Shown here in pieces: positions 9,638-29,589 of a stretch of 64,000 bases of DNA. Position 1 is the first letter of the stretch; each line of letters begins with the position of its first letter. The notes under the pieces are model-generated. The model was not told the origin of the DNA and did no database searches. It worked only from the letters and a program-made list of their open reading frames with translations. Origin of the DNA: Nitrospira sp. (lineage in GTDB: Bacteria; Nitrospirota; Nitrospiria; Nitrospirales; Nitrospiraceae); contig JARFXR010000001.1 in NCBI GenBank assembly GCA_029194535.1, forward strand, positions 874,721-938,720, given 5' to 3'. A program made the translations under genes and the position numbers.

Positions 9638-9854
9638 CCTCGATGTTCCGCCTCACGGCCTCACCATACTTTAGGGTCATTTCGGTTTGGGTTCGATTGG
9701 GCGTACCCTCTGGCCGACATTCAGTGCCACACGCATTGAGCTGATCCCAGAAGGTGCCATGCGGCGCTGCGACCACGGCTTCGTCAGCTCCTCCTTCCTT
9801 CAACTCGTGTCCCTCAACAGCCGCCGGATGAACCCTTCAGACCTTGAGCCTGCG

Positions 9855-12800: not shown

Positions 12801-13832
12801 CCGATCCTGAACCGGACGGCACAGACCTATGAGCGGGAGATCGAGGTGCCTCTCGTGTCGGGACGCAATAAGATCCAAGTCTCCGTGCTGAATCAGCGAG
12901 GAACCGAGTCGCTGCGCGAAACGGTCTATACGACATCCATGGCGGAGATGGCGCCTCCGGACGTCTATCTGGTGGGCATCGGTGTCAGCGAGTACAAGAA
13001 CCGAGCCTACAATCTGCGGTATGCGGCCAAGGATGCGAACGACCTGCTGGCCCTGTACAAATCGGTCGAGGAGCGTCCCGGCGTGAAGGGGAAAGTCCAT
13101 CTGTTGGACCTGACGAACGAGAAAGCGACCAGACCGGAAATCCTGAAGGCCAAGGATTGGCTCAAGCGATCCAGGGGCAACGATCTGGTGATCGTCTTCG
13201 CCGCGGGGCACGGGATGACCGATGAACAGTCCAACTACTATTTCGGCACGCACGACATCGATCCCAAACAGCCTGCCGCGAACGGCCTGCCCTATGAGGA
13301 ATTTGAACTCCTGCTCGACGGCATTCCCGCGCTCCAGAAAGTCTTACTGCTCGATACCTGTTTCTCCGGCGAAATTGACAAGGATCAGGCGGTGTTGGTG
13401 GCCAAAGCCGACGCGGGTGGTTCCGGCACGGTCACCATGCGGTCGTTTAAGGCAGCGCGGGGCGTCAGTCTGGTTGCGGACGTGGGCGATGGGCAGGGGA
13501 ACACACCGACTGAACCGCGGCTCCCCACAGACATGGTGAAGTTTCAACAGGATTGGTTCGCCGATCTGCGGCGCGGCACCGGCGCAGCGGTCATTTCCAG
13601 TTCCAGCGGCAACGAATACAGCCTGGAAGGGGAACAATGGAAGAACGGCGTGTTTACCTATGCCCTAATGAACGGCCTGAAGAACCACGGCGCCGATGCC
13701 AATAAGGACCGAACCATCACCGTGAGCGAACTGCAAGCCTACGTGATCGAACAAGTGCGCAAGCTCACGGAAGGAGGCCAGAATCCGACCGTGCGGCGGG
13801 AGAATCTGGAGCATGATTTCGTCGTGTATTGA
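9855..13832 (+). CDS. Exported lipoprotein: WD40 beta-propellers, Ig-like region and C-terminal caspase-like (peptidase C14) domain
   Basis: Lipobox MVAGC; WD repeats (GHAGAIQAVAVSPNG..KIWDV, GHTGAVSSLVFSPDG..RLWNL); catalytic FAAGHG and LLLDTCFSG. Start uncertain (9828/9855/9930). Confidence 0.88.
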   Translation: MAAPQARPKFRTKRCRDAVSLGSRFMIASMLLMVAGCAVAPSFGRSGPSRDDVQAPSEADMQRMMKQMMGQAPTRQTAVSTDGVQVVFQTGHAGAIQAVAVSPNGRYIASSGSQDGTVKIWDVTSGQEVRNFTGFGGFGQGADLVAFSEDSAHVVTHEMSGAVKVFDVASGREIRAGGSGLDGRGAVSGDARIAAVSETAEVKFNDRPSLGGARPLSVVDLGTGRTIWTIPDSAMQQPLVFSRDGRTLITVRTDTEMSSQSVIGTIGSSLGAMTGLGGFFSEPSIPTIKQELLVWDVPAKKLRRSWPFTPASDGIGGALSPDGRYLAMEQHVERSLRVLDLETGKPTVAISLGEVGMKGMGMTHSLAFSPDGKFLAIGRGDGTAKLFEFPSGRTVREFEATSLNFSPDGTTWVIGAASGGAPYLQEAAGGKETRLAGGASEVSDLAMTADGQSIVAGMHGGSAKLWDLPTGQLVRTFDCPDGMAVSSVAVNRVGSRLATGCVNGSAWLWDLISGKRLNRLAQPLPPDQFTPVYLRIARDDRTIVVGRGNQLVVADLSSGNELRRIVLPNESVKALAYLENPSKQPSIDRETLEQMKESAQWVRTLAVHPNGQLVAIGRSESTSLWDVRTGKLVRELRDVSRLQDRAQQQRLRDEENQLMLDEAGSLKSLLPFGLGAPSRSMAMPQGEIVTLDDPSELFDGLGDEMQGATSLAFSPDGTFLVTDGVKGKAVWEVATGKKVRPSRKKMPESQFDPLSLTENMELNIGGRGAAFSPDGRWAARGHGQIIKVWNVSTGQDVLQLVGHTGAVSSLVFSPDGRFIVSAGGDGAIRLWNLRSGKEVASLIALGREDFVAVTPDQYYRASKSRIKGVAFRVKDQLYPFEQFDLRFNRPDIVLERLGMASQDLVRSYRLAYEKRLKKMGLSDQALGIDFHLPEIHIRGGDVPVSVTRGILPLRVKATDTKYPLDRLQVYVNDVPVYGTSGVPILNRTAQTYEREIEVPLVSGRNKIQVSVLNQRGTESLRETVYTTSMAEMAPPDVYLVGIGVSEYKNRAYNLRYAAKDANDLLALYKSVEERPGVKGKVHLLDLTNEKATRPEILKAKDWLKRSRGNDLVIVFAAGHGMTDEQSNYYFGTHDIDPKQPAANGLPYEEFELLLDGIPALQKVLLLDTCFSGEIDKDQAVLVAKADAGGSGTVTMRSFKAARGVSLVADVGDGQGNTPTEPRLPTDMVKFQQDWFADLRRGTGAAVISSSSGNEYSLEGEQWKNGVFTYALMNGLKNHGADANKDRTITVSELQAYVIEQVRKLTEGGQNPTVRRENLEHDFVVY

Positions 13833-13901: not shown

Positions 13902-15059
13902 ATGAGACACGTAAGGTGCCCATGGATAGTGGGGCTAGCTTTCGGAGGATTACTTACGGTTGCGATCGTGTATCTGGCCGTCGTCACCGGCGCGCTCGCA
14001 CCAGACACTGCTGAGGCGGCGGCAATGTCCGCCGATGACAGAACACCCACTCCCTCCGACGCCGCTCCGCACGAAGACGTCCAGCCGCGCGCCCTGAAAC
14101 CTCCCAGGGATCCCGCACGGCCCGATACGCTCGAAGAGCGTCTAGGTCGCGGCCATATTCCTATGGTGGCGCCACCGCCGTCGCTCGTTCAACAACCGGC
14201 AATCACCGGTGGCGCGTTCGCCTGCATGGCCGACGCGGCGAGTCGCGATCTCGCTGGTTCGTGGGTCATCGATTACACGCGCATGACGAATCAAGCCTGC
14301 CGCAGCTCGTGCGCACAGTATGGATTCGCCTTTGCCGCGACGCAGTACGGCAGCTCCTGTTTCTGCGGCAACACTTTCGGAAAGTACGGCGAAGCCGCCT
14401 CGGCCTCTCCGCCTAGAAGTTGCAACCTCGGATGCGCGGGCAATCCGAACGAGGTATGCGGCGGGGAATGGGCTAACAGCCTTTCGCTCACTGGCGCGCC
14501 GCCGCCCGCGCCCACGGATGGAGGCCAGTGTCTTGTCAAGGCGCAAGGAACCTACATGACGACGGGAGGCGCTGCGGGAACTTACAACGGCGTCGAGTTG
14601 CACCGCTGGAAGAAAGTGGCGACGATCTCGTCGACGCCGACGATGAAGACTTATCAGTTTCAATACACGATGAGCGTCAGCGGATTCATGGATCAGACAG
14701 GCGCGGGCGGACAGTGGCGTGGCACGTGGGGCGGGACGGCCACGCGCATGGAGACTTGGCAAGCGCCCGTGGTCACAAACCCTGCGACGGGACAGCCCGC
14801 GTTTCGGCTAACCACGACGCCGTCATTCTCTACCACCGTGCCCTATACAGGACACCTGCTGAATCCATTGCGGCCCGATCCGAGGATGTGGGCGACGGTG
14901 AGCGCATTCGCGCAGCCACAGCATTTGTTTTCATCGGGCACCTCGTTCGTCGTTGCGGCGTCGAACGGCTCAACAAGACAGGCGACCGGGGCCACATGGA
15001 TTTGGAACAACCCGCTGGGTGACGCGACGTTCACTTGTAGCTGGAATGTTTCCTTGTAG
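13902..15059 (+). CDS. Secreted or membrane-anchored WSC-domain protein
   Basis: GGAGG RBS and N-terminal hydrophobic helix. Cys pattern C..D...RDL..MT...CR..C...G..FAATQYG..CFCG..C...C.GN..E.CGG at about 14208-14492. Confidence 0.8.
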   Translation: MRHVRCPWIVGLAFGGLLTVAIVYLAVVTGALAPDTAEAAAMSADDRTPTPSDAAPHEDVQPRALKPPRDPARPDTLEERLGRGHIPMVAPPPSLVQQPAITGGAFACMADAASRDLAGSWVIDYTRMTNQACRSSCAQYGFAFAATQYGSSCFCGNTFGKYGEAASASPPRSCNLGCAGNPNEVCGGEWANSLSLTGAPPPAPTDGGQCLVKAQGTYMTTGGAAGTYNGVELHRWKKVATISSTPTMKTYQFQYTMSVSGFMDQTGAGGQWRGTWGGTATRMETWQAPVVTNPATGQPAFRLTTTPSFSTTVPYTGHLLNPLRPDPRMWATVSAFAQPQHLFSSGTSFVVAASNGSTRQATGATWIWNNPLGDATFTCSWNVSL

Positions 15060-15166
15060 TGGCGTCGACCCATCGGCGTGATCGAGGTAGGCAACATGGC
15101 GCTTAGCGATGATTCGCAGCGTTCGTTTTCCCGGAGAATTTCGCCAGCAGGGCTGATTGGTTAGCG

Positions 15167-15457
15167 ATGAGAAACGTCATATTGATGTTCGCCGTATTCC
15201 TGATCGGCGCGGCGGTCATTTCCAGTTCCAGCGGCAATGAATACAGCCTGGAAGGGGAGCAGTGGAAGAACGGCGTGTTTACGTATGCGCTATTGAACGG
15301 CTTGAAAAACCACGGCGCCGATGCCAATAAGGACCGGACGATCACTGTCAGCGAGTTGCAGGCCTATCTCATCGAGCAGGTGCGGACCCTCACCCAGGGC
15401 GGCCAGAACCCGACGGTGAGGCGGGAGAATCTGGAAAATGACTTTGTGGTGTATTGA
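15167..15457 (+). pseudogene. Diverged second copy of the caspase C-terminal 83 codons fused to a signal-peptide-like leader
   Basis: 15206-15457 aligns without gaps to 13581-13832. Manual comparison gives 28 synonymous and 5 non-synonymous codon differences. Confidence 0.8.
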
Positions 15458-15543
15458 AGATGAACCGTGAGGTATGAATTCAATGCCCGCGAGGCGTTCC
15501 ATGCGAAGCGGCGGCCATCCAAATGGCAGAACCCGGATTGAGT

Positions 15544-17565
15544 ATGAGAATCGCAGTTCGTGATGCCTTGCTCGTCCTGGGCTGCTCGCTGTCGGTCGCC
15601 TGTACCGCGAGCGATCGAGCGGAGAAACCGGAAGACGGCGTCGCGCAACAGACCGCTGCCGGCAGCGTGGCTGCTCCAGGCACGGACGGAGCAGCTTCGG
15701 AAATCGAGGGCATCGAATCGCGCGGCGTCCAAAATCCCGACCGTCCGATTCTCCCGCCGAAGGATCGATTCACACCGCTTCCTTCGAGCCCTCCATCAGG
15801 ACCGCAACTCACGCCGGTCACCCCGCCTCCGCCTCCACCCCCCACCGTTTCACCGGTCCTCGTCGTCCCGGAGTTCCTATCGGAACGATTCGCCATGCCG
15901 GTCCCCTGCGAGGGCCGGCCGTTCTGCTGGCTCAGTCGTCGCGGGGCTGGGTCGCTCGATGAATCCTTCGAATATTTTCGCAACCTCGGGCTTGCCAAAT
16001 GCAGCGATCGCTGGCTTTCATGCGTCGAACAATTCACCGACTCGCTGAATCAATTCAAGGTCCGCAACGGTTTTTCGGCCGGACAGGGAGAAGTCAGGGC
16101 TACGTACTTCAACAACATCGACCTGCGGATCGGCCGTGATATGCATTGCCGTCGGAACATGGGCGGGGTCGCCTGTTATGTCTCCAACTATGGGCCACCG
16201 GCATTTCTCAATGGAGGAGCGAATCCCGCCTATCCGGACCCTCATGCCGCGCTGATAGAAGCCGTCCAAGCCGCTGGAGGTCTCGTCACGCCCGGCTCTC
16301 TCCAACAGCCGGCGACCGGCGCCCTCAGTGCGCCCGGTACCTTGAAAAACGCTCGTCCTTCGACCGGAACCGGTTCAGCACCGGCATCGCCGAAGCCGTT
16401 GGCGACGGTGGCGATGGAATACCATCCGGCGCCCCCGCTCAAGACCGTGGTCGTCCGGGAGCGTGACGGGTTGTTTACGCAGCCGAATCCCGAAGTCTGC
16501 GTCGGCAGCCGGAGTGAGGGACCTCCCAGCCGTCAGGATGTGGACACGGGTATCGATGTCATTCCGGGCGACGTGATCGAATTCTCGGCAAGTGGATCCA
16601 TCTGGGGCGGTGAATGTCTGACCGGCAACAACGGTCCTTCCGGATGGGGGCCGAGGCCGGACAATCCTAAACTGCCGATCAGGAATGCGTCGCCCTTCGG
16701 TTTGATCGCACGGATCGGTCAGCCGAACGACGCCGGAGCCTATCAGGACGTCGACTGCGTCGTCACGTACGATGAGTACGGCCAGACCCCTCCGTGCAAA
16801 CCTCGCCCTCCGTATTTTTTCATCGGCGACCGCCATACCCACACGATTCGCGCCGCCGGTGGGCGCTTGTATCTTCGTGTCAACGACGATCGGCCGGGAA
16901 ACGGAGTGGGGTCATTTGTGGTGTCGATCACGGTCCATCGGCAGGTGACGTTCTACGTCTACGACCAAAACGGTGGACTCGTTCCCAACGTGGCGCTGGA
17001 CCGAGAAGGGCCCAAATTCGCGCCCCACATGTGCCTCGCCTGCCACGGCGGCACCTACGATGAGCCGACCCACACGGTGCGCGGCGCCTCGTTCCTGCCA
17101 TTTGACGTCTACAACTTTCTCTACCATGAGATTCCGGGATTTCGCCGCGTGGATCAGGAAGTGAAGTTTCGCGACCTCAATCTCCTGGTGGCTGAAACGA
17201 GTCCTAGCAAGGAGAATCCAAACCGTCCGATCGCTCGCATGATCGACGGCATGTATCGGGCGCCGAGCGGGATGGCGAATGCGGCGGCCGTCCATTATGT
17301 TCCCGCAGGCTGGCGCGGCCACGAGGATCTCTATCGTGATTTCGTAGGGAAGTATTGCCGTCTCTGCCATATGGCGCAGCCCGCTCGCATCGATTTCGAG
17401 ACGTATGACAACTTCAAGCAGTCGAACCCTGGCGCGGCGATCTGTCGATTCGGCACCATGCCCCATGCGCAGGGACCCTATGACCATCTGGCGACCGGAC
17501 GTTATTCGACCAAGGTCGGAGATGAGCTTCGTGCGCTGGGAGTCGGATGCATCAAGAAATCATGA
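15544..17565 (+). CDS. Lipoprotein with two CxxCH heme-c motifs and a LecA/PA-IL-like beta-sandwich
   Basis: Lipobox LSVAC; CLACH (17032-17046), CRLCH (17356-17370) and MPH; segment DTGIDV.PGD.IEFSASGSIW..GPSG..LIARIG..GRLYLRVND..NG.GSF.V.I. Confidence 0.7.
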   Translation: MRIAVRDALLVLGCSLSVACTASDRAEKPEDGVAQQTAAGSVAAPGTDGAASEIEGIESRGVQNPDRPILPPKDRFTPLPSSPPSGPQLTPVTPPPPPPPTVSPVLVVPEFLSERFAMPVPCEGRPFCWLSRRGAGSLDESFEYFRNLGLAKCSDRWLSCVEQFTDSLNQFKVRNGFSAGQGEVRATYFNNIDLRIGRDMHCRRNMGGVACYVSNYGPPAFLNGGANPAYPDPHAALIEAVQAAGGLVTPGSLQQPATGALSAPGTLKNARPSTGTGSAPASPKPLATVAMEYHPAPPLKTVVVRERDGLFTQPNPEVCVGSRSEGPPSRQDVDTGIDVIPGDVIEFSASGSIWGGECLTGNNGPSGWGPRPDNPKLPIRNASPFGLIARIGQPNDAGAYQDVDCVVTYDEYGQTPPCKPRPPYFFIGDRHTHTIRAAGGRLYLRVNDDRPGNGVGSFVVSITVHRQVTFYVYDQNGGLVPNVALDREGPKFAPHMCLACHGGTYDEPTHTVRGASFLPFDVYNFLYHEIPGFRRVDQEVKFRDLNLLVAETSPSKENPNRPIARMIDGMYRAPSGMANAAAVHYVPAGWRGHEDLYRDFVGKYCRLCHMAQPARIDFETYDNFKQSNPGAAICRFGTMPHAQGPYDHLATGRYSTKVGDELRALGVGCIKKS

Positions 17566-17680
17566 AACCGCTTCGGACGAATGGAACGGTTCCACCGCAG
17601 TCAAGGTGGTCATGATGAACTGTCCGTCCCTTGCTTCAAGCACGTCACCTATCGGCACCGTGTCAAAAAGGAGAGAAGCT

Positions 17681-20600
17681 ATGAGACAGAACTTCCAACG
17701 TCAATGGACTCGCAGTGTGTTGATATGTGCCATCGTTGCGGTCCCCTGGCTTCTGCCTGGATTGGTCATGTCAGCGGATCGTCAAGCAGGCCAGCGTCAG
17801 CCGAAACCGGGAACCGCCGGCCAAACTGTCAAGCTGCCGACATTCCCGCAGAAATTCGATGTGCAGGGCCCGGAATCTGACTCATATGGATTTGCGGTCA
17901 CGCAGCCCGGTCCGATTGCCGTTGAGGTGCAAGCGCAGGGCACTCCGGTCGTCGTGACGCTCCAATCGGCCGGCGGTCAACCGATCATCCAGCGAGGCAC
18001 TGGTCTCCTCAAGATTTTCTACACGGCGACGCCGCAAGATGTGCAACGGAGCTTCCTTTGGCAGGTCCAAATTAAAGCTTGGTGTGAAGAGGATTGCCTC
18101 ACGGCCGGGAAACGGCCGCGGTCGACCGGGTCTGTCATGGTACAGCATCCGCCGGTGGACCAGGCGGCTGTGCAGAAGGCGGTTCAAGCCATGGTCGCCC
18201 AACAGAAGCAGCCGTCCCCCCAAGAGATCCAATCGGCGGGGGCCCGAGCGGCGGCGCAGATGGACCAGACCTTTCAGCAACGCAAAGCGCACTTTGAACA
18301 ACTCCAGCAGCAGCGACGTGCGGCGCTGTATGCGAAGATTCAACCACAAGTGGACCAACTTCGCGCGCGAGTAGGTATAACCTCACCGGTCAGATCGAGA
18401 GGATTGGACGAATCACCGGAACAAGATCAGGGCACGACGGAAGGGGAGATCGGCACGCGAGCGATGCCGCAAATGAGAGGCAAGGCGGGTCCGGGCGGAC
18501 AACCTGCTGCACAAATGCCGACGTTTCCGCAGCAGTTCACCGTGCAAGGTCCGGAGAGCGACTCGTTCGGCTTTGCCGTGACGCAGCCGGGGCCGATAGT
18601 GGTCGAGGTACAGTCGCAAGGCCCAGCGGTCGTCGTCACCCTTCAGCATCTACCCTCGGCTCCTTTGTCTCAGTCGGGCAGCGGGCAAGTCCGTCTGAAC
18701 TATGACGTTACGCTGCAGGACATTGCGAAAAGTGCCTTGTGGTTCGTGCGAGTGAGACTGGCCCAAACCGGTCCTCCAGTGAGCGGCACTATCAATGTGC
18801 AACATCCCCCGGCCGATCCTGCGATCGTTCAAGCGCAGACCGCCGCCGTGGCCGAGCAGGAACGCGCCAGCGGGGAGCGCGCGGCGGCGCAAGTGGAGGC
18901 GCAGAGCCGGGCCGAGTTCCAAGCATTCAAGGCCGGGATCGAGCAACAGTACCAGCAGCGACTGACGGCTGAGCGCGCGCAGAATCAAACACTCCTCAAC
19001 CGGCTGCAAGCCAAACCCGGAGGCATGATCCGGTCGCGCGGTCTCAATCCGGTGATTACCAAGATCAACAAGAGTGAAGGCCAGCCGGACACCCAAGTGA
19101 TCATCGAAGGCACGAACTTCGGCCCAGGAGGCGAGGTCGTTTTCCAGCTCGGTCCCAATATTGTGGGGACGGGCATTGTGGAAGCTTGGGCTGATACGGT
19201 CGTGGTCGCCAAGATCCATCCCGCCACTTCAGGACTGCTGCCCTATCAGGGCACAGTGGCAATCAAGGTGGGAGCATCGCTCAGCAACGCCGTGCCGTTC
19301 AAGTTCATCGCGGTCGAAGAGCCGCGTGAAATCCGCTTTGCGCAGGGCCAAGATGTCTCCCTTGCAGATCCAAGCATCCTGACCGGCTCGAAAATCGAAC
19401 ACCCCAACAATTCATTCGGCGGATTGAATGGATCGCAAGGCAACGACATCTTTTTCCCCTCGAAACAACTCAGCAACGGCTGGATAGTCAAAGACATTAG
19501 GCTAAAGATCGATCCCTGCTCCTATCCCGACTGTCGAGGGGCCTTTGTCGCAGATAGCCGCGTCGGGACCCCATTGCCCTTTTTCAATGTCCGGTGGGGA
19601 CACGGGCCCTTCGTGGGGGCTCGCTATTGGTTCACGCTTTATATCGTCGGGCCGCGTGGCGTGCCCGATGGAATCGCGGTCACCGGGCCGTTGAACCCCT
19701 ATGTGCCGCCGGGAACGCCCCCCCCGGCAACAACAGCTTCCTCTACACCGCCCGCGGAGAGAACCCCGCCGTCACAGCCACCATACACACCTCCGGCATC
19801 CTCACAACCCATAGAGATGACTGTCGTACCGGTCAATCCTGCTTTGTTAGGTTCATCATATCTGGCGCCCGGGTCCGGCTCCTCAACACCGAATCAACCT
19901 CCAGCAGGTCAATCAGGGACCAAGATGGCTGTCGACCCAAAGAACGCAATGAACCCGACGCTTCAGCAAGCTCCGCCGAACTCCGGCGCCTCAACGCCCA
20001 CACAAGGAAGCTCATCGACGGGAAGCGGGACAATGGCTCCACCACAACAGCCTGGGTCGACGACGCCGGTGATTACGTCGCTCAGCGTGACGCAAGGTCA
20101 GCCGGGCGATCCGGTCATGATCAACGGGAGTAATTTTGGACCAGGTCTCGGGGAGATCCATTTTGTCATCGCGAATGGGAAAGACGTGAAGGCGCCGGTC
20201 ACGATCTGGAGTGACGGGCAGATCTTTACGTCCGTGCCCGATGGGTCGGAGGCAACCGGCCTGCTCGGATTCAATGGAACAGTGTATGTAAAACGTACAG
20301 CTGACGCGAAGATGAGCAATCTTGTCGGCTTCCGATTTGAGCCTACGTTGAGGCACAGGGATATCGGTTGCAGTCCCGTCACCCCGGACCGCAGGATTCA
20401 AGGTGAGCATCAGTATACTTTTTTGGTCCCATGCGTTGAGCAAAATGGCGCAGGTGATTGGTTCGGTGCCAAAGGCAATGACGAGTTCTATCTGAGCACG
20501 AAACTTAGTAACGGGTGGGTCGTCAGTCTTGTCGACGTGAAGCAGACCTATAAATATGGCACGTCCGGCGCCTATACATGGGCTGATCGTGCCGGCAGCG

Positions 20601-20737
20601 ATTCTCCTTATGTCAACGTACGCTGGTGGAGAAACACATTTTCTTCAGTTGCGTACACTTTTACAGTCACGATCATTGGACCGAGAGGCGTACCAGACGG
20701 CATCGTCTGCAAGCAGGCCCCGTGTTCTGATTATTGA
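17681..20737 (+). CDS. Secreted modular protein: 2x (beta-sandwich + Gln-rich coiled coil), then 2x (IPT/TIG + unknown beta domain)
   Basis: AAGGAG RBS before ATG 17681 and a signal peptide. Repeats PTFPQ.F.VQGPESDS at 17837 and 18518; IPT starts PVITKI..GQP..V.I.G.NFG and PVITSL..GQPGD.V.I.GSNFG. Confidence 0.8.
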   Translation: MRQNFQRQWTRSVLICAIVAVPWLLPGLVMSADRQAGQRQPKPGTAGQTVKLPTFPQKFDVQGPESDSYGFAVTQPGPIAVEVQAQGTPVVVTLQSAGGQPIIQRGTGLLKIFYTATPQDVQRSFLWQVQIKAWCEEDCLTAGKRPRSTGSVMVQHPPVDQAAVQKAVQAMVAQQKQPSPQEIQSAGARAAAQMDQTFQQRKAHFEQLQQQRRAALYAKIQPQVDQLRARVGITSPVRSRGLDESPEQDQGTTEGEIGTRAMPQMRGKAGPGGQPAAQMPTFPQQFTVQGPESDSFGFAVTQPGPIVVEVQSQGPAVVVTLQHLPSAPLSQSGSGQVRLNYDVTLQDIAKSALWFVRVRLAQTGPPVSGTINVQHPPADPAIVQAQTAAVAEQERASGERAAAQVEAQSRAEFQAFKAGIEQQYQQRLTAERAQNQTLLNRLQAKPGGMIRSRGLNPVITKINKSEGQPDTQVIIEGTNFGPGGEVVFQLGPNIVGTGIVEAWADTVVVAKIHPATSGLLPYQGTVAIKVGASLSNAVPFKFIAVEEPREIRFAQGQDVSLADPSILTGSKIEHPNNSFGGLNGSQGNDIFFPSKQLSNGWIVKDIRLKIDPCSYPDCRGAFVADSRVGTPLPFFNVRWGHGPFVGARYWFTLYIVGPRGVPDGIAVTGPLNPYVPPGTPPPATTASSTPPAERTPPSQPPYTPPASSQPIEMTVVPVNPALLGSSYLAPGSGSSTPNQPPAGQSGTKMAVDPKNAMNPTLQQAPPNSGASTPTQGSSSTGSGTMAPPQQPGSTTPVITSLSVTQGQPGDPVMINGSNFGPGLGEIHFVIANGKDVKAPVTIWSDGQIFTSVPDGSEATGLLGFNGTVYVKRTADAKMSNLVGFRFEPTLRHRDIGCSPVTPDRRIQGEHQYTFLVPCVEQNGAGDWFGAKGNDEFYLSTKLSNGWVVSLVDVKQTYKYGTSGAYTWADRAGSDSPYVNVRWWRNTFSSVAYTFTVTIIGPRGVPDGIVCKQAPCSDY

Positions 20738-20959
20738 TAACGGCGACCCTGCTGGCAAAGAGAGGCTCGTTTCCAGTGAGCGGCTTGCTGATCGCCCGCT
20801 GCTGCACCGGGTGCTTGCTCCTCAGCCGACTGGGCGCAAGAACAGGCGACGGCGTCGTCGAAAGTGGCGGCGAGGAACAGTGCAGTGTCCCGTGAATGGC
20901 GTGCCGTTAAAGTTCGATGCGATCGAGCCTGGCGGGTGGGGAGGCAGGGCAGAGACCTC

Positions 20960-22228
20960 GTGCTGGCTTGCACAAAGAATTTACTTCTGTTGATTCTGTT
21001 GCTTGCCGGATCCGTCGCGGTTGCGCAAGAACGACTGCAGTTACCGCGCTACAGCCTTGAGGTGCCAGCCGGGTGGACCTCGCAGATCGACGGTGAGCGC
21101 TGGCTGATCCATCCCGTCGGCGCCGCGAACGAGTTGGCCATTGCGCCGGTGGGGACCGGCATGGTTGTCGGGGCGACAGTCACGCGAGTGGACGCACATC
21201 GGCAGCTCTGGGCCAGCGCCTTGGGCAGTCGTCATGTGGTTCAGGCCAATCCGACGCAACAGGACAAGGATGACGAGGGACGGACCTGGACCATCGACTC
21301 GGCGGCAATCGAAGAGGGAGGCGTCGTCTATCTGCTCGTGTTGAGCGTTGTCGAAATGAATGGCCGCATGGAGGGATTTCTTGTGCTCGGGACGCCGGGC
21401 GCAGTCGAGCGGAACCAGACGGCGATCGACGCGATTCTCAACTCGGTACGCCCCCGCCCTGTCACAAGTGCTACAGCGCGGACGCGTGACAAGACGCCCG
21501 TCTTTGGCCAGCCTAGCCCGCTCGGGACACCGGGCACCGGCCGCATGGCCGGAGTCTGGACCGCGACGACCCATGAACTGCGCTACGGGCTTGGTGGGCT
21601 TGCCAACAAACCCGTGGTCTCGGAACTGATCCTGTTTGCCGACGGCGCGGCGCTGTGGGGGATGCCGGGCGAGGGGCTGCTCGGTTTCGATCGCGCGGCG
21701 CACCGCGCGCAGTGGCCCGAGCGTTGGGGGACCTACCAGCTCAATAATAAGCGGCTCACAATCACCCGTGGCAAAGAAGCACGCCAGTATGTTGTGCTCC
21801 CGGATGGAGCGCTTGAGCATCGTTACACGGAAGGTGGCAAGGAGCGGACGGGCGAGCGGTTTCTTGCACGCCCCAGCCTGGATGGGATGCAGCTCGACGG
21901 CGAGGTACGGCGCAAGGACCATTGGCCGGCGCCGGGGAATACGAGTGGCATCGGCACCGTGCCGGGCTGCACGTTTCTGACGGACGGCACCTTCCGTGAT
22001 GAAAAGCTGATGTGGATTATGTTGCCGGAGCGAGCGGGCGACAGGAAGGACGCCCACGAGGCTCGCGTAGCTCCTGGTTCCGGACGCTACCGGCTCGAAC
22101 ATTGGACACTCGTGCTGGAATACGACGACGGGCGCGTGAACCAGGTCAGTTTCGTGGTCACGGACCGCGACCACCCGACCAAGGGCGCGATCCTGAATGG
22201 GTACCCGATTGAGGCCAATCCGCATTAG
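20960..22228 (+). CDS. Secreted hypothetical protein
   Basis: Long ORF with signal peptide LLLLILLLAGSVAVAQ. GTG start at 20960 chosen (ORF track begins 20864). Confidence 0.7.
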   Translation: MLACTKNLLLLILLLAGSVAVAQERLQLPRYSLEVPAGWTSQIDGERWLIHPVGAANELAIAPVGTGMVVGATVTRVDAHRQLWASALGSRHVVQANPTQQDKDDEGRTWTIDSAAIEEGGVVYLLVLSVVEMNGRMEGFLVLGTPGAVERNQTAIDAILNSVRPRPVTSATARTRDKTPVFGQPSPLGTPGTGRMAGVWTATTHELRYGLGGLANKPVVSELILFADGAALWGMPGEGLLGFDRAAHRAQWPERWGTYQLNNKRLTITRGKEARQYVVLPDGALEHRYTEGGKERTGERFLARPSLDGMQLDGEVRRKDHWPAPGNTSGIGTVPGCTFLTDGTFRDEKLMWIMLPERAGDRKDAHEARVAPGSGRYRLEHWTLVLEYDDGRVNQVSFVVTDRDHPTKGAILNGYPIEANPH

Positions 22229-22428
22229 GAACTGTGTTGAACCTTCCGACTGGCCGGACGACTAACGAGCGAGTGTGCAAAGGAGAGACCTATGCGAAAC
22301 CCAACACCATGCGTGTGGCAACGTCGGTGGGTGCCTGCACGCAGGACGCGTTGACCTCGTAGGCCTTCTTGATCGACAGCGTCGGCCTAGAAGGCGTATC
22401 GGATGGGATCGTGGTGCCGTAACAGGCT

Positions 22429-22734
22429 ATGAAGCGAACGGATCGTACCATGCGACTCGCAGGAATGACCTGGATCGTGTTAGTGGCGATGTTGGCGGCG
22501 CCGCTCGGCGGGGTCGCCGGAGCATCTCCGACAGGGAGACATCCGTCATCGGCACCTCAAAAGTCGGGCGCGGAGTCATCCTTTCAAGAGAAGGCAGCCG
22601 GCAAGGCCGACGGCAAAGAGGTCCAGTCGCGCGGGCTTTTTTCAAAGAAGAAGAAAAAGAAGTTGACAGGCGGCGGGGCGGCGGCGCAGTCACAACCATC
22701 TGAGCTGACCGATCCACCCGTCATGGACCGCTAG
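22429..22734 (+). CDS. Small secreted protein with a VQSRGL motif followed by a hexa-lysine tract
   Basis: Signal peptide (WIVLVAMLAAPLGGVAGA), then KEVQSRGLFSKKKKKKL. Confidence 0.65.
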   Translation: MKRTDRTMRLAGMTWIVLVAMLAAPLGGVAGASPTGRHPSSAPQKSGAESSFQEKAAGKADGKEVQSRGLFSKKKKKKLTGGGAAAQSQPSELTDPPVMDR

Positions 22735-22778
22735 CGATCGGGAGGCCGGTTACCGTCGATACGCAAGGCAGGTCATTC

Positions 22779-23492
22779 TTGAAGTCGCCGCTGCGTAACC
22801 TTCCTCTTGTCGGGCCGATAGAAGCCCGGTACGACCGGCAGAGCGCGTTTTCCTACGCCTGTCGCGCCTGCTGCCGCTGTTGCCACGATAAGATCATTCA
22901 CCTCAATCCGTATGAAGTCGGCCGGCTGGCCATGAACCGAGGGATCACGACGACCGAGTTTCTGTCCCGCCACACGGAATCCAACGGCACGTCGCTCCGA
23001 CGGGACGAGGAGGGTGCTTGCGTGTTTCTGGCTCCTCAGGGATGCGCCGTGCACGCCGATCGCCCCTTGGTCTGCCGACTCTATCCGCTGGGACGACGGG
23101 TGACGGCAGAGGGAGCGGAGCGGTTTCATGAGCTGATCCCTCATCCACAGACCGAAGGGGAATACGGGACGAGCGGAACGGTCGACGCGTTCCTGTCGCG
23201 GCAAGGAGCGCACCCGTTCATCGAAGCGGTCGACCGGTACATCGAGCTGGTCGCGCGCATGGCCGCCGCCTTGGTCGCCAAAACAGGCGGCGCCGGCGGA
23301 TCTCAGCGCGAGGTTGGTGATGTCATGAGCCAGTTGGCAAGCAGCGATGGGAAAGACATTCCCGACTGGCTGGATATGGACCTGGTCGTCGGCCGGTATT
23401 GCGAGCAGAACGGGCTGATCGGGCCGACACAGGTGGAACAGAAGTTGGCGCTGCACATCCAGGCTATCGTAGCCTGGATGGAAGCCGTCTAA
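22779..23492 (+). CDS. YkgJ/FliB-like CxxCxxCC Fe-S/Zn-cluster protein
   Basis: CRACCRCC, CVFL, C.VHADRPLVCRLYP; TTG start. Confidence 0.82.
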   Translation: MKSPLRNLPLVGPIEARYDRQSAFSYACRACCRCCHDKIIHLNPYEVGRLAMNRGITTTEFLSRHTESNGTSLRRDEEGACVFLAPQGCAVHADRPLVCRLYPLGRRVTAEGAERFHELIPHPQTEGEYGTSGTVDAFLSRQGAHPFIEAVDRYIELVARMAAALVAKTGGAGGSQREVGDVMSQLASSDGKDIPDWLDMDLVVGRYCEQNGLIGPTQVEQKLALHIQAIVAWMEAV

Positions 23493-23512
23493 CATTCGAC
23501 AAGGAGGCAATC

Positions 23513-23812
23513 ATGGATCGGAAGAAGAGGGCGGAGTCCGGACAGGAACAGTCACGCCGGCTGGCAGCGGCGCTTGCCCTGTTGAGCGTCTCGGTCGGTG
23601 TGGACGTTCAGACCGCGCTGGCCTCCTCGTCGCCATCACCGATGCCGCCGGAGGGCATGTCCAGACCGGGAGCCCGGATGAAACCGGACGCCACACAGCA
23701 GAAGTTCGATAAGACGCAGCAAGAATTCGACGCTACGCAAAGGAAGCTTCCTTCTGTACAGGATAAGGATCGGGTGATGCCCGGTATGAAGCCGGCCACG
23801 CCGGTACGATAG
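23513..23812 (+). CDS. Small precursor-like peptide with a hydrophobic leader and xxxQx[KE]x heptad repeats
   Basis: Strong AAGGAGG RBS; leader LAAALALLSVSVGV; repeats DATQQKF DKTQQEF DATQRKL PSVQDKD (23687-23770). Confidence 0.7.
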   Translation: MDRKKRAESGQEQSRRLAAALALLSVSVGVDVQTALASSSPSPMPPEGMSRPGARMKPDATQQKFDKTQQEFDATQRKLPSVQDKDRVMPGMKPATPVR

Positions 23813-23863
23813 GGAACGGGAGAGAAATGTGTCAGGACAGAAAGGAACGTTCACACAAATCTA

Positions 23864-23879
23864 CGTGAAATTATTCACA
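23864..23879. promoter_or_regulatory. CRP-like box CGTGA-N6-TCACA
   Basis: cgtgaaattattcaca, 54 bp upstream of ATG 23934 in an AT-rich spacer. Confidence 0.45.
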
Positions 23880-23933
23880 GGCTGGATGAGTGAAGGGGTA
23901 TGAAGACATGAGCGGTTCACAGGGGGGTGACCG

Positions 23934-25610
23934 ATGAAAAGCCTATGCAAGGGTGAACGGAAGAGAATAGGTTGGACCTGTGCGATGCTCGCAGCGGTCG
24001 GTATGCTGGCAGCCTGCTCATCGGCTGAGAATGTCTCGCAAACGGGCGAAGGCGGCATCGAGAGCAGAGGGGTTGGTCAGATGCAGAGGCCAGGGAAGGC
24101 GGGGATGCAACCGCCATCGAGCGGGATCGGCCAAGCCAACGCACAATTGCCGACCTTCCCGCAAAAGTTCGAAGTGCAAGGACCGGAATCGGACTCGTTC
24201 GGCTTCGCCGTGACGCAGCCTGGGTCGATTATTGTCGAAGTCCAAGGTCAGGGCGCGCCGGTTCTCGTGACATTGGAATCCCCTGGCGGCCAGTCGATCA
24301 CGAAGCAGGCTACGGGTAGTCTCCGGATGACCTACAACGTCACCTCGCAAGACGTCCAACGGAATCTCTTTTGGGCCATACAGATTCGCCTGGCTCAACC
24401 GATGCCACCGCAGCAGGGAGGCCGGGCTACGGGAACCGTGAATGTCCAGCATCCGCCAGCTAATTCATCGCAGGTCCGATCAGCGTTGGCCGCCCAGCAA
24501 CAGGCCGTGCAACAGCAAGCGGCCCAGCAACAAGCACAGGCACAACAGGTAGAGGCGCAAGCAATAGCTCAGGCGGATCAGGCATTCCAACAGCGTAAAG
24601 TGCAGTTTCAACAGCAGCTGGCAAGTCGACGGGCAGCCATGATCGCGCAGATCCAACCCCAGCTTAGTCAACTACAGAATCCGATGGGTGGGCAAGTGCG
24701 GCATCGGGGTGTTGAGGGGACCAGTCCAGCAGCCGACGATCCCGCGAGCGATGTCACTGACGAAATTGGGACTCGTGCGCTCAAACCCGCTGGTGGCTTA
24801 AAGGAAGCTGCAATCGGTGTACGGCCCCCGGTGATGTCCGCGATGCAAGAGCCTGTCAGTTCGCAACAGGCACTCGGTTCGGCCGGATCCGGTCCGCCTC
24901 CGCAGCAGGTGATGCCCAATCCGACAATCAACTCGTTGAGTGTGGGTGGACTTGGTCAACCGAGTGATCAGGTCATCATTAACGGGAGCGGATTTGGCAC
25001 CAACGGGGGAGAGGTGCATTTCATCCTCGGTCCGAATAAAGATGTTACCTATACAGGCCAGGCTTGGTGGTACGACAACCAAATCCTGGTCCATGTGCCG
25101 GACGAAGACAAGTTACGAGCCTACAACGGCTTCGTGTACGTGGTAAGAAATCCGGACAAGACCAAGTCCTCGCTCACGCCGTTTCATTTTGAACCGGCGG
25201 TAGATTTTAGGACGATCATCTATACACAAGATAGGAACATCGGGCAGCCGGGAGCTGATTACAAGATCATCGGTGGGAATAGTAATCTCGGCCATCAGGA
25301 AATACGGCACGGGAATGACAATCCCTTCGTCGGTTACAAGGGGAACGATGAATTTTTCACCAATGCGAGGCTGGCAAATGACTGGGTTCTCGACGAGGTG
25401 TTCCTCACGCCGACCCGCTTTAAGCGGGGAGGAGCATATTTTCAGGAGAAGAAGCTCGGAAGCAACTGGCCCTATTTTAATGTGAGATTCTGGGTGGATG
25501 GCTGTTTTGGAGATACGGAGTCATTCAGCAAATACATTTACATCGTTTCAATCAGAGGGCCCAAGGGTGTCCCCGATGGTCTCGTCTGCACTCAGGCGCC
25601 TTGCCCGTAA
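23934..25610 (+). CDS. Lipoprotein paralog of 17681-20737 with one copy of each module
   Basis: Lipobox LAAC; PTFPQKFEVQGPESDS at 24150; Gln-rich coil; IPT/TIG; C-terminal GPKGVPDGLVCTQAPCP. Confidence 0.82.
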   Translation: MKSLCKGERKRIGWTCAMLAAVGMLAACSSAENVSQTGEGGIESRGVGQMQRPGKAGMQPPSSGIGQANAQLPTFPQKFEVQGPESDSFGFAVTQPGSIIVEVQGQGAPVLVTLESPGGQSITKQATGSLRMTYNVTSQDVQRNLFWAIQIRLAQPMPPQQGGRATGTVNVQHPPANSSQVRSALAAQQQAVQQQAAQQQAQAQQVEAQAIAQADQAFQQRKVQFQQQLASRRAAMIAQIQPQLSQLQNPMGGQVRHRGVEGTSPAADDPASDVTDEIGTRALKPAGGLKEAAIGVRPPVMSAMQEPVSSQQALGSAGSGPPPQQVMPNPTINSLSVGGLGQPSDQVIINGSGFGTNGGEVHFILGPNKDVTYTGQAWWYDNQILVHVPDEDKLRAYNGFVYVVRNPDKTKSSLTPFHFEPAVDFRTIIYTQDRNIGQPGADYKIIGGNSNLGHQEIRHGNDNPFVGYKGNDEFFTNARLANDWVLDEVFLTPTRFKRGGAYFQEKKLGSNWPYFNVRFWVDGCFGDTESFSKYIYIVSIRGPKGVPDGLVCTQAPCP

Positions 25611-25796: not shown

Positions 25797-27329
25797 TCAC
25801 TGGCTGACTCGGTCCAGTAGCTGCACCCCTCGCTTGAGCACGTCGGGGCTGCCGATCAACTGCGGCACCTGATCGTTGTTGTATTCTCGTCGTGCCACCC
25901 GTTCGACTTCCGGTTTCACATAGCCGTAGAGTTCCGAGATCTCGATCCTGCCGTCTTTATTCGTATCAGCCGCACCCTGCAGACCCTTGAGGAAGAAATA
26001 GGTAAACAGGCCGTGATTTTTTTGATCATAGGTGCTGGAAATCTGTGACGCGGAGCTGGCCGTCAGCACTACGATCTTGTCGCCGGTCAGGACCGGGTTC
26101 TCCATACTGATCACGAGCGGCCGAGCGCCCTTCGCAATCACCGATCGTCCTCCGGAGCCGGAGAAGCAGGAATCGAGCACGACCAGGATCTCTCGGGCCG
26201 GCAATTTTGCCAATTGTTCGTAGAGCCGTTTCAGCGGGTACCCGGTAATTTCCAGAAAAGTCGGGTCGCCGTCATACGGAACCAGGAATCCCTCTTGAGT
26301 TGCCGGATTCGGAGCGCCGTGACCGGAGTAGTAGATCAGCAGGCTGCTATCCTTGTCCACACGGTTGGGGAGCCAGCGCTCGATATACTTTTCCAAATCG
26401 CTCTTGGCGGCCCGTTCATTGACGACCATCACGACGTTCTCGTCAGGGTAGCCCAGAGACTTCGTCAGATATTCCCTCAGAATGTACGCGTCGTGCGAGG
26501 CGAATTCGACAGCCGGCAGGCTCTGGCGATATTGCTCGATCCCGATGATGACGGCGTAGCGCGTGCTTTGTCGTTTTCCCGCCCCCGGCGGAAGAATGTC
26601 CACATCGCTTGATCGTTCCGCGCGAGTCACAGTGGTCGTCGCTCGATCGGCCGGTTTTTGGGGAACGTTTCGCGCGTACGCAACCAACTGCGGCGAGTTG
26701 GCGAGCCCCCGCCCCATCTGTTGCAGGGCGTCGATGATCGATTCACGCAGAGCGATCGTGACCGCGCGGTCCTTGTCCGCGCTGGTTTGGAACAGGGCGT
26801 CTTGGTTATGGGTCTTGGATTTGAAGGTTTCCGTGATGATCGCTTGACCCTGCCGGTCCATCACGGTCACCGGCACTGCGGCGCGCCCTTCAAAACTGTC
26901 GGTCGGACTGGTGAATATGTAGAACGGGCCGAGGAGGTAGAGGAACCTTCTGGACAAGCAATGTCCATCCGCCGCCAGCTCCAGAGCTTTGGGCTCGACC
27001 ACCACGTCATAGTGGCCGACGGCCAGCCCCTTGTCGTTGACGACATCGACGGTTTCGAACAAGGGCGAGAGGGTCTCCGCCATTCCTGTTTCGAGCTCGT
27101 TTCCGATGGGAATCTCGTAATTCCCTGCGCAAGATACGTCGTACGTGGAGACCTGATTCCGAAGCTGGTCGGGAACCACCAGCGCGGCGCTGACCGGAAA
27201 CTTCTTCATCTTCATCGAAGGAACTGAGGTGTTCAACGGGAGCTTGGTCGGCGCGCAGGCTTGGATGCCTGTCGCCAAGGCCAGAAACATAAGGGCCAGC
27301 CAAGCCCTTTCCATCCGACAGGGTTTCAT
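25797..27329 (-). CDS. Lipoprotein with C-terminal caspase-like (C14) domain
   Basis: Lipobox IQAC; YAVIIGIEQY, YYSGHG, VLDSCFSG, HGLFTYFFLKGL..D.NKDG.I...EL; RBS before ATG 27329. Confidence 0.88.
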   Translation of the reverse strand: MKPCRMERAWLALMFLALATGIQACAPTKLPLNTSVPSMKMKKFPVSAALVVPDQLRNQVSTYDVSCAGNYEIPIGNELETGMAETLSPLFETVDVVNDKGLAVGHYDVVVEPKALELAADGHCLSRRFLYLLGPFYIFTSPTDSFEGRAAVPVTVMDRQGQAIITETFKSKTHNQDALFQTSADKDRAVTIALRESIIDALQQMGRGLANSPQLVAYARNVPQKPADRATTTVTRAERSSDVDILPPGAGKRQSTRYAVIIGIEQYRQSLPAVEFASHDAYILREYLTKSLGYPDENVVMVVNERAAKSDLEKYIERWLPNRVDKDSSLLIYYSGHGAPNPATQEGFLVPYDGDPTFLEITGYPLKRLYEQLAKLPAREILVVLDSCFSGSGGRSVIAKGARPLVISMENPVLTGDKIVVLTASSASQISSTYDQKNHGLFTYFFLKGLQGAADTNKDGRIEISELYGYVKPEVERVARREYNNDQVPQLIGSPDVLKRGVQLLDRVSQ

Positions 27330-27406
27330 GTCTGCTTCCTTCTTCACGCGAGCCTCGCGACGACGATCTTCGCCACTATACAGACTGACCATCTCACGGC
27401 AACTCT

Positions 27407-29329: not shown

Positions 29330-29589
29330 GGATTCACTCCTTGTGCCGGCCGGTTCCACGAGCATCCTTCGAGAATCGCCGGCAGAGGGTGGTTATGCAA
29401 ACCATTCGGACGCCCTTTCTGTGGCGGGCAAAGGGTACGCGCCGACCAGTCGAACTGTCAAGATTAAGTAGAGACATCACCTCCAGCGCCGCCGGACTAT
29501 TGGACTACTCGTTCGGCGGTGCGTATCGTAGGCCTGGTCGGGAGGACAGCGGATGGAAGCGTCGGGTACAGGAGAGAGGAGCGGCCACG

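Follow-up and report, generated by a model that had tools for sequence, protein, structure and literature searches.

In a stretch of the genome of Nitrospira sp. (GCA_029194535.1, JARFXR010000001.1:874,721-938,720, forward strand; 64,000 nucleotides, hereafter the window), a short peptide motif centered on an arginine recurs in the linkers of five exported proteins encoded next to exported proteases of family C14. We propose that the motif is the recognition and cleavage site, spanning P6 to P2', of the exported C14 enzymes of this cluster, and that together they make up a dedicated extracytoplasmic protease-substrate system. From the sequence comparisons described here, we consider this proposal on balance probable. 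The data covered the window and flanks of up to 10 kilobases (kb) at the loci of relatives. These loci are labeled L001 and so on, whether from a genome or a metagenome, and homologous proteins are labeled P0121 and so on. Signal peptides and lipoboxes were assigned by eye. The window has a G+C content of approximately 60%, and the named homologues of its proteins all come from Nitrospira or from Nitrospirota metagenome-assembled genomes. The region from 9.7 to 29.4 kb is a co-directional block encoding exported proteins, in which two C14 genes are on the other strand.

The strict form of the motif is [IV]-x-[STPH]-R-[GA]-[VLM]. We found nine hexapeptides of this form, all in frame, on the + strand and in linkers of the five exported proteins. 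An exported WSC-domain protein (13902..15059, +; PF01822, E=5e-17) has VQPRAL at 14079-14096. A lipoprotein with two CxxCH heme-binding motifs (di-heme lipoprotein; 15523..17565, +; CLACH at 17032 and CRLCH at 17356) has IESRGV at 15712-15729. A secreted IPT protein of 1,018 amino acids (17681..20737, +) has VRSRGL at 18389-18406, IGTRAM at 18449-18466 and IRSRGL at 19028-19045, all on the + strand. A secreted protein of 101 amino acids (22429..22734, +) has VQSRGL at 22621-22638, followed directly by F-S-K6. Finally, an IPT lipoprotein of 558 amino acids (23934..25610, +), made up of an N-terminal beta-sandwich, a coiled coil, an IPT domain and a C-terminal beta-sandwich, has IESRGV at 24057-24074 (site 1), VRHRGV at 24696-24713 (site 2) and IGTRAL at 24765-24782 (site 3), all on the + strand. 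The 1,018-residue protein is a paralogue of the 558-residue protein and is laid out as two N-modules and two IPT plus C-terminal modules. Its open reading frame (ORF) opens at 17405 and overlaps the end of the di-heme gene; Met 17681, ahead of a signal peptide, is the probable start, in which case the first 92 codons of the ORF would be untranslated. The original prediction spoke of eight copies of the motif in its text but gave nine coordinates, and all nine are correct. The longer peptides to which it drew attention, EDVQPRALKP and DEIGTRALKP, are both present. Its placement of the copies in spacers also holds: they are in linkers, and the three sites of the 558-residue protein are in segments predicted to be disordered, with a predicted local distance difference test score (pLDDT) below 50.

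The number of motif copies is far above that expected from composition. A six-frame translation of the whole window contained 18 matches to the pattern, 13 of them at 14-25 kb. There were 11 matches in the five proteins compared to 0.12 expected from shuffling each protein, and nine matches in the 466 residues of their linkers compared to 0.022 expected from shuffling within the linkers; none of 50,000 linker shuffles gave more than two. No match was found in the 16,122 residues encoded by the other likely genes of the window. Chance is excluded as the source of the copies, and the whole-protein and within-linker shuffles likewise rule out an artefact of composition or low complexity. The codons used for Arg differ among the copies (CGC, AGA, CGA, CGG and CGT), as do those used for Ser and Gly. 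Because of these differences the motif is one of the peptide, on which selection would act, and a DNA-level repeat or mobile mini-element is ruled out. Two pairs of copies (18389/24696 and 18449/24765) are at paralogous positions, so the window has approximately five to six independent occurrences rather than nine. The extra matches in the 1,018-residue protein, at 19646-19663 and 20675-20692 ('IVGPRGVPDG'), are in the confidently folded C-terminal beta-sandwich domain. The sequence I[VI]GPRGVPDG is a conserved element at the end of that domain, GP[KR]GVPDG being near-invariant in the family, and these two matches are unrelated to the linker motif. Compared by eye, the twin-arginine translocation (Tat) signal, the lipobox, the sequence recognized by the formylglycine-generating enzyme (FGE; C/S-x-P-x-R) and the furin-like site R-x-K/R-R do not fit the motif.

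Conservation of the motif was most informative in the IPT family. A search with the 558-residue protein recovered 136 homologues with identities down to 32%, the named ones all from Nitrospira or Nitrospirota, and 112 of the 136 were aligned. Within otherwise weakly conserved linkers, the information content of the alignment peaks exactly at the three sites. Site 1, directly past the lipobox, reads G-[EDG]-V-[EG]-[ST]-R-[GA]-[VLM], with Arg in 89 of 91 sequences. Site 2, past the coiled coil, reads G-G-Q-[VI]-R-[PS]-R-G-[LVI]-E (Arg in 107 of 108), and site 3, 20-23 residues beyond site 2, reads [ED]-[IV]-[GTA]-[TS]-R-[AG]-L (Arg in 105 of 108). Essentially all of 120 IPT homologues, down to 32% identity, retain at least the mid-linker site. 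The few that miss the strict pattern carry near variants (GVRTRAI, GMSTRGL and GLNTRAI), so a site between the N-terminal and IPT modules is essentially universal. The motif sites are also retained in the orthologues of the 1,018-residue protein in L002, L006, L010, L011 and L096. Sites 2 and 3 are separated by a near-constant distance, in most cases 23 residues and in some 20-21, even though the acidic stretch that joins them is weakly conserved and the linker past site 3 is very variable in length.

In an AlphaFold2 model of the 558-residue protein (mean pLDDT 75), the three sites all fall in low-confidence segments (pLDDT <50; residues 1-69 and 251-321) that separate the confidently folded beta-sandwich, coiled-coil and IPT modules. 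The motif is thus under strong purifying selection in linkers that otherwise drift freely and are predicted to be disordered. Comparison of this model by Foldseek gave generic matches only, to Ig/IPT, Fab and carbohydrate-binding-module-like beta-sandwiches, and no functional lead. Searches of Pfam, NCBIfam and PADLOC with the candidate substrate proteins returned only WSC and a weak TIG match.

The motif is also conserved in exported proteins that are unrelated to the IPT family. For these comparisons we used 14 species-level Nitrospira genome loci and several metagenome loci. In the di-heme lipoprotein of the window, the motif is approximately 37 residues past the lipobox Cys. Among its Nitrospira-type orthologues, all those with the N-terminal linker keep V-[EK]-[SP]-R-[GA]-[VLI], down to 44% identity (P0121-P0125, P0127, P0128 and P0130-P0133). 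Distant di-heme homologues from other phyla have neither linker nor motif. The small Lys-rich protein of 101 residues has counterparts at the syntenic position in three other species (motif at L005:13926, L006:12674 and L008:11745) with the sequence D/G-V-[QK]-S-R-G-L-F-[SK]-KKKK. These ORFs (L005:13572-14048, L006:12443-12772 and L008:11535-11843) continue through F-[SK]-K5-6 into a Gly/Ala/Gln tail, and the L005 protein has three copies of the motif. The motif is also found in the TWDxLW family (L001, L002, L003 and L010), in an fn3 lipoprotein and a 431-residue protein of L096, and in lipoprotein P0174, which is encoded directly downstream of a WD40-C14 gene. A further family consists of lipoproteins with a long low-complexity region rich in Pro, Gln, Gly and Tyr and a DUF4384 domain (L004:871-2736; L016, sites 1971 and 2427; L099:3228-4877). 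In the L004 and L016 proteins a motif copy flanks this domain on each side (GIYPRGLAAEP and PVIPRGVGATK). One of the C14 proteins of the window (27407-29365) likewise has a DUF4384 domain at its C-terminus.

In total, at least six unrelated families carry the motif in N-terminal or inter-domain linkers, and it is conserved in each of them but WSC, which rules out pure paralogy. Many copies are 14-45 residues past a lipobox or signal-peptide cleavage site, and there are up to four copies per protein. From 274 unique instances we derived a pooled consensus with Arg at P1 in 100%, Gly (66%) or Ala (34%) at P1', Ser (41%), Thr (38%) or Pro (21%) at P2, Val (67%) or Ile (33%) at P4, and Gly at P6 in 64%. 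The extended consensus is G(P6)-[EQD](P5)-[VI](P4)-x-[STP](P2)-R(P1)-[GA](P1')-[LVIM](P2'). Two 12-residue peptides, SGEVESRGVPQM and GGQVRPRGVEGE, serve as examples. Beyond the hexapeptide, the leader '...YQSLPPEKKRSIAQGMATDDAG-[DS]-[IV]-ESRAVPG' is common to the TWDxLW proteins (L001:15250-16923 and L003:7809-9911) and the small Lys-rich protein of L005 (13572-14048). Whole cassettes of leader and linker seem to have been shuffled among unrelated genes.

Genes for motif-bearing proteins are consistently near C14 genes. Upstream DNA was sufficient in 12 of the genome loci, and all 12 have a C14 gene within approximately 7 kb of the IPT genes. It usually encodes an orthologue of the WD40-repeat C14 lipoprotein of the window, with 46-65% identity overall and 72-82% in the catalytic domain; the exceptions are L005, where the WD40-C14 is shorter and divergent, and L001, where the C14 protein has no WD40 repeats. 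L015, L016, L074, L095 and L096 likewise have C14 genes near motif genes. The density of the motif is 11.7 per 10,000 amino acids inside the clusters compared to 1.9 outside them (seven matches in 37,265 amino acids of flanking ORFs). We also started from the enzyme, scanning metagenome contigs with a C14 profile, and obtained 80 loci. Where the C14 domain was at least 70% identical to that of the window, the neighboring genes had a motif density of 6.5 per 10,000 amino acids. Where it was 57-67% or at most 44% identical, the density was 0.57 per 10,000, approximately that expected by chance; this value, from 64 loci with distant C14 domains, rules out a general enrichment near any bacterial C14 gene. 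In the di-heme family, neither a C14 nor a WD40 gene is present in the 6-10 kb around the motif-less homologues P0135 and P0136, and the gene for the motif-bearing orthologue P0128 is 2 kb from a WD40-C14 gene.

The three C14 proteins of the window have the sequence features expected of active, secreted enzymes with a preference for basic residues at P1. The WD40-repeat peptidase C14 lipoprotein (9828..13832, +; Pfam WD40 E=7.6e-47, PF00656 E=3.7e-12) is encoded by an ORF that opens at 9687, with a likely start at M 9828 or 9855, and has the lipobox LMVAG-C. Its catalytic His (AAGHG at 13200, +), its catalytic Cys (LDTCFSG at 13350, +) and the alpha1 Asp of its S1 pocket (YAAKDA at 13020, +) were assigned from the sequence. 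An exported C14 lipoprotein (25797..27392, -; PF00656 E=6.8e-18; likely start M at 27314) has the lipobox IQA-C, His in SGHG and Cys in DSCFSG. An exported C14 protein with DUF4384 (27407..29365, -; PF00656 E=1.4e-18, PF14326 E=2.5e-15) has a signal peptide ending in AKA|G, His in AGHG and Cys in DSCYGG. All three open with a lipobox or signal peptide, as do their orthologues, and they score 46.9, 65.6 and 67.9 bits against PF00656, compared to the gathering cut-off of 21.4. The residues G-H-G and D-x-C-x-[SG]-G are invariant in 15 aligned C14 domains, including those of the three window proteins, and the sequences thus identify the three as members of family C14 (clan CD) with its His-Cys dyad. 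Two acidic residues, D38 and D145 of the alignment, are also invariant in 15 of 15 domains. A profile alignment places them with the Asp of 'GCINDA' and 'DSC' of Yca1, which on our own reading correspond to Asp95 and Asp211 of TbMCA2. These are the acidic S1 residues of TbMCA2, matched by Asp365 and Asp462 of MALT1 (PMC4357240); our comparison took in these two Asp positions, and the third acidic residue of MALT1, Glu500, is outside it.

Searches against known structures gave the same picture. A profile of the 15 domains matched Yca1 (4f6o; E=3.2e-12) in the Protein Data Bank (PDB), followed by AtMC4, GSU0716, TbMCA2, MALT1 and AtMC9, and matched no caspases; a single-sequence phmmer search of the PDB with the WD40-C14 catalytic domain found nothing. 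Foldseek comparison of an AlphaFold2 model of the C14 domain gave a probability of 1.00 to GSU0716, AtMC9 and MALT1, and the top 50 matches were all to GSU0716, AtMC9, MALT1, AtMC4 or Yca1, with no caspases. Because both S1 Asp residues are invariant and the closest relatives are Arg/Lys-specific, specificity of the window enzymes for a basic P1 residue is a well-founded prediction.

The catalytic domain of WD40-C14 has an insert past the catalytic Cys (domain residues 149-220) with pLDDT <50. As the original prediction had pointed out, this linker contains KAARGV (13449..13466, +), 33 residues past the catalytic Cys. The surrounding sequence 'MR[SA]FKAAR[GA]V' is kept at that distance in all WD40-C14 orthologues examined. 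Since the insert is the usual place of autoprocessing, KAARGV is a candidate autoprocessing site of WD40-C14. At the same column of the alignment, other C14 paralogues have AFSSRGV, LFGTRAL or VIAKGA, the first two of which closely resemble the linker motif. What is conserved in this disordered loop is a basic residue followed by a small one. Besides the three C14 proteins, the only peptidase in the 64 kb of the window is an S11 D-Ala-D-Ala carboxypeptidase (34305-35153); there is no other endopeptidase, and we rejected the idea of another processing enzyme encoded in the window.

The motif resembles the substrates of the best-studied Arg-specific C14 enzymes. MALT1, of subfamily C14B, has a strict requirement for Arg at P1, an aliphatic P4, Ser or Pro at P2 and two acidic S1 residues. 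Its natural cleavage sites are mostly followed by Gly. MALT1 differs in being a cytosolic animal signaling protease activated by the CBM complex, whereas the enzymes and candidate substrates described here have signal peptides. The motif differs from MALT1 sites in having Val or Ile rather than Leu at P4 and in extending to P5 (acidic or Gln) and P6 (conserved Gly). The best MALT1 substrate made of natural residues is Leu-Val-Ser-Arg, with a narrow P4 preference and with Ser or Pro tolerated at P2 (PMC6207715), and the conserved span of MALT1 substrates is P4-P1' (PMC9463181). For AtMC9, the library-derived optimum is Val-Arg-Pro-Arg, and the structure has a hydrophobic S4 pocket (PMC10235996). 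The consensus at site 2 reads, letter for letter, [VI]-R-P-R-G; at sites 1 and 3 it reads [VI]-x-[ST]-R-[GA]. As read from the sequence, the motif appears to have the features of an Arg-specific C14B substrate: an aliphatic P4, Ser or Pro at P2, Arg at P1, a small residue at P1' and an accessible location. The VRPR optimum and hydrophobic S4 pocket of AtMC9 (AtMCA-IIf) agree with [VI]-R-[PS]-R of site 2, and its structures 8a53 and 9n3d are among the top Foldseek matches. It autoprocesses at an Arg that is buried in S1 and located in the linker past the catalytic Cys. Unlike the proteins of the window, AtMC9 is a plant type II enzyme with a p20-linker-p10 arrangement and has no WD40 repeats, lipid anchor or dedicated neighboring substrate genes.

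On the proposed mechanism, the exported, lipid-anchored C14 protease or proteases of the cluster would cut after the Arg of G-[EQD]-[VI]-x-[STP]-R|[GA]-[LVIM]. The WD40-C14 lipoprotein is the prime candidate enzyme, and the two C14 proteins encoded at 25797-29365 are alternatives. Because the sites are in disordered tethers, cutting would be expected to detach proteins, separate modules or release a peptide. Cuts of the site 1 type, in the IPT family and in the di-heme, fn3, TWDxLW and DUF4384 lipoproteins, would detach proteins from an N-terminal leader or from the lipid anchor. Cuts at sites 2 and 3 would part the N-terminal beta-sandwich and coiled coil from the IPT and C-terminal module, excising an acidic spacer of approximately 20-23 residues. 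A cut in the small secreted precursor would free a cationic C-terminal peptide, GLF-(Lys)6. The outcome, at a guess, would be maturation or shedding of carbohydrate-binding or matrix-binding surface proteins.

Several observations weigh against this proposal, and the idea in the original prediction that the motif is cleaved by the neighboring C14 enzymes stands in part. Its favorable side consists of selection on the motif, its presence in unrelated families, the constant company of exported C14 proteins, the dyad and S1 Asp residues, and the AtMC9/MALT1 pattern. On the other side, the FKAAR-G loop of WD40-C14 is a misfit to the motif, with Lys at P4 and Ala at P2, and fits at P1-P2' only. The WSC copy is present only in the allele of this genome, and 11 other WSC homologues have no motif. 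One of these motif-less homologues is in a comparable cluster, so a presence/absence comparison over the WSC homologues gave no support for linkage. WD40-C14 proteins with a C14 domain 57-67% identical to that of the window (L018, L020, L022 and L026) are mostly without motif-bearing neighbors; the association between motif and C14 genes is therefore strong but restricted to one Nitrospira lineage. The P1 residue is near-absolutely Arg, with hardly any Lys, which is stricter than in many metacaspases but MALT1-like, and the AlphaFold2 model of the C14 domain is of moderate quality (mean pLDDT 58.9). The cleavage, the enzyme responsible and the physiological outcome are things that we infer, and the motif may be a general Nitrospira processing signal for a protease encoded elsewhere, since our view was limited to the window and flanks.

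Other roles for the motif can be weighed against cleavage by the neighboring C14 enzymes. The motif could be a docking site that is not cleaved, in which the invariant Arg and its small flanking residues insert into the WD40 propeller of WD40-C14 and tether partner proteins, any proteolysis occurring elsewhere. There is a precedent in the 'WIN' motif, A-R-[AST], which binds the WD40 propeller of WDR5. The most constant neighbor of the motif genes has many WD40 repeats, the divergent C14 protein of L005 is also a WD40-C14, and location in disordered linkers is typical of short linear motifs. In addition, WD40 is the commonest partner domain of prokaryotic C14 proteins and is annotated as a protein-protein interaction domain (PMC3501461). 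We nevertheless consider docking without cleavage unlikely. The P4-P2' pattern reproduces measured subsite preferences of AtMC9 and MALT1, motif-like loops are found past the catalytic Cys of C14 paralogues, at the typical autoprocessing position, and in L001 the only C14 gene within 6.6 kb upstream encodes no WD40 repeats, yet all of the sites are kept. Docking and cleavage are also compatible and not mutually exclusive. Slightly less likely still is cleavage by a different Arg-specific extracytoplasmic protease encoded elsewhere (for example, an S1, an S8 subtilisin/kexin-like or a C11/C25 enzyme), with the adjacency to C14 genes due to coincidence or a shared regulon. In line with such an enzyme, the region in view comprised the 64 kb and flanks no longer than 10 kb, some motif genes are just beyond the core cluster (the seven outside matches), and WD40-C14 homologues exist without motif-bearing neighbors. 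However, the window encodes no further endopeptidase, C14 genes are beside the motif proteins in every locus with enough flank, in at least 14 species-level genomes, and the motif fits C14B at P4, P2 and P1' and is unlike the furin/kexin site R-x-[KR]-R.

It is improbable, in our estimation, that the motif is a sorting or modification signal, for example for surface exposure, vesicle targeting, or modification of Arg or of Ser/Thr. Many copies are 14-45 residues past the lipobox or signal-peptide cut, as are lipoprotein sorting signals of other phyla, and P2 is mostly Ser or Thr. However, the copy closest to universal lies inside the protein, where the coiled coil is joined to the IPT domain, 200-300 residues from the N-terminus, and one protein can have as many as four copies, which is at odds with an N-terminal sorting signal. 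Pro at P2 in 21% of instances means that P2 is not an obligatory acceptor, and the cluster has no conserved transferase or sorting machinery. The least credible explanation is that the motif has no function and arose as a by-product of low-complexity composition and paralogy. Two paralogous pairs do account for four of the nine copies, and the WSC copy is unconserved. Against this, within-linker shuffling gave 0.022 matches compared to the nine observed, the 112 aligned sequences have an invariant Arg at each of three sites amid drifting flanks, and the motif occurs in at least six unrelated families with codons that differ among copies. The alignment, the conservation in the di-heme family and the linker shuffles effectively refute the by-product explanation.

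Known proteolytic systems have parts of the arrangement proposed here. Arg-gingipain of Porphyromonas gingivalis cleaves FimA and Mfa1, which are made as lipoprotein precursors, after Arg46 and Arg49, freeing them from the membrane for assembly (PMC8512630). Like the proposed system, it uses an Arg-specific clan CD enzyme that cuts tens of residues past the lipidated Cys, as we suggest for site 1, and the maturation of these type V pilins is the closest functional precedent. Gingipain differs in belonging to family C25 rather than C14, its pilin substrates polymerize by strand exchange, and no extended motif has been described for it. Membership in the gingipain/type V pilus system was rejected, the proteases here being C14 enzymes and the IPT model having no similarity to pilins. 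MaOC1, an orthocaspase of Microcystis, is a bacterial C14 enzyme with an acidic S1 pocket and a preference for basic P1 residues that autoprocesses past p20 (PMC5756287). It is cytoplasmic and has no linked substrate genes, whereas the enzymes here are exported, with candidate substrates encoded alongside. Anti-phage modules (bacterial gasdermins, Craspase and EACC1) also pair a C14- or CHAT-type protease with an adjacent protein that is cut at a specific site; they are cytoplasmic and release toxic effectors, whereas the components here have signal peptides. Membership in a defense system was rejected: PADLOC gave only a generic 'caspase' domain match for two of the C14 proteins and nothing for their neighbors, and the NCBIfam model 'caspase, EACC1-associated type' scored 81-103 bits, below its cut-off of 140. 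In the LapG-LapA and fragipain-BFT pairs, a cysteine protease that is periplasmic or a lipoprotein cleaves a secreted protein at a short motif within its tether or pro-region, thereby releasing or activating it. LapG is a C93 bacterial transglutaminase-like cysteine protease (BTLCP) that recognizes TAAG, and fragipain is a C11 enzyme that cuts at Arg-Ala in pro-BFT. Each is known for a single substrate, whereas the motif described here is common to many families.

The region downstream of the WD40-C14 gene has features of a recombination slot. Downstream of the WSC gene, the final 83 codons of the WD40-C14 gene recur as an orphan copy (15205..15458, +; homologous to 13580-13833), with 86% nucleotide and 94% amino acid identity and with homology reaching no farther than the stop codon. 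This copy marks the edge of the variable slot occupied by the WSC gene. Comparable p10-like orphan fragments come after the variable gene at L095:7650-7832, L096:5505-5966, L006:6477-6656 and L007:44-292; L007 comes from AP038806.1, a complete Nitrospira genome. These fragments look like the products of cassette replacement, with recombination in the protease gene at its conserved 3' end, resembling the C-terminal displacement of polymorphic toxin loci. Such replacement would explain why the content of the slot varies (WSC here, P0174 in L095).

Combining these observations, we suggest, as a tentative reading that is possible but somewhat short of probable, that Nitrospira has a dedicated extracytoplasmic 'orthocaspase' system. 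In this system, lipid-anchored WD40-C14 proteins would read a P6-P2' consensus that many unrelated exported proteins have acquired by grafting. Through such cleavage, matrix-binding or carbohydrate-binding proteins would be shed or activated, and peptides that are possibly active would be released (the acidic spacer of approximately 23 residues and GLF-Lys6). Substrates would be recruited as cassettes at the 3' slot of the protease gene, leaving orphan 3' fragments of C14 genes behind.

Other genes in and near the block were noted. Between the 1,018-residue and 101-residue proteins is a gene for a signal-peptide protein present only in this genome (20864..22228). Next to the small Lys-rich protein is a gene for a CxxCxxCC protein (22779..23492, +; PF03692, E=1.5e-11), cytoplasmic and without a signal peptide. 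It is a syntenic marker, found downstream of the IPT genes in nine of 14 genome loci with 55-59% identity, and no part for it in the proposed mechanism is implied. In L001, a CsgG-like gene (5428-6033; curli secretion channel family, PF03783, E=6.5e-6) is between the C14 gene and three tandem IPT paralogues. The WD40-C14 homologues of L018, L020 and L026 adjoin ORFs that, by eye, resemble extracytoplasmic function (ECF) sigma factors and Ser/Thr kinases; here this enzyme type is in a different context, possibly one of signaling. Upstream of the block, a resistance-nodulation-division (RND) efflux pump (ACR_tran; 1321-6555) is spread over three ORFs, of which 1321-2934 and 2940-4871 each correspond to the N-terminal half of the model and 4855-6555 to its C-terminal half. 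HlyD-type and OEP genes follow (6177-9448). This is either an unusual split or duplicated arrangement or gene decay. The window also encodes a protein with two LCCL domains (38885-39832; PF03815, E=2e-35), a domain mostly known from eukaryotic extracellular proteins.

C14 peptidases are abundant in bacteria. A 2012 survey found Nitrospirae to be the phylum with the highest density of C14 proteins (PMC3501461), and according to a 2017 review a single bacterial C14 enzyme, MaOC1, had been characterized biochemically (PMC5756287). The physiological substrates of bacterial C14 proteins are essentially known only from recently described cytoplasmic defense modules. In the searchable literature on Nitrospira and metacaspases and on secreted bacterial metacaspases, we found no earlier account of the motif or of substrates of exported bacterial C14 enzymes. 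If the tentative reading of an 'orthocaspase' system is true, the proteins described here would be the first natural substrate set, and the motif the first consensus, for an exported bacterial C14 protease. The motif and the adjoining candidate substrates make the role of exported bacterial caspase homologues testable by peptide cleavage and N-terminomics. The motif is also an annotation handle for more than 100 'exported proteins of unknown function'. Nitrospira are key nitrifiers of soils and wastewater plants and live in dense aggregates, and processing or shedding of WSC, IPT, fn3 and heme surface proteins could bear on aggregation and matrix biology in these organisms.

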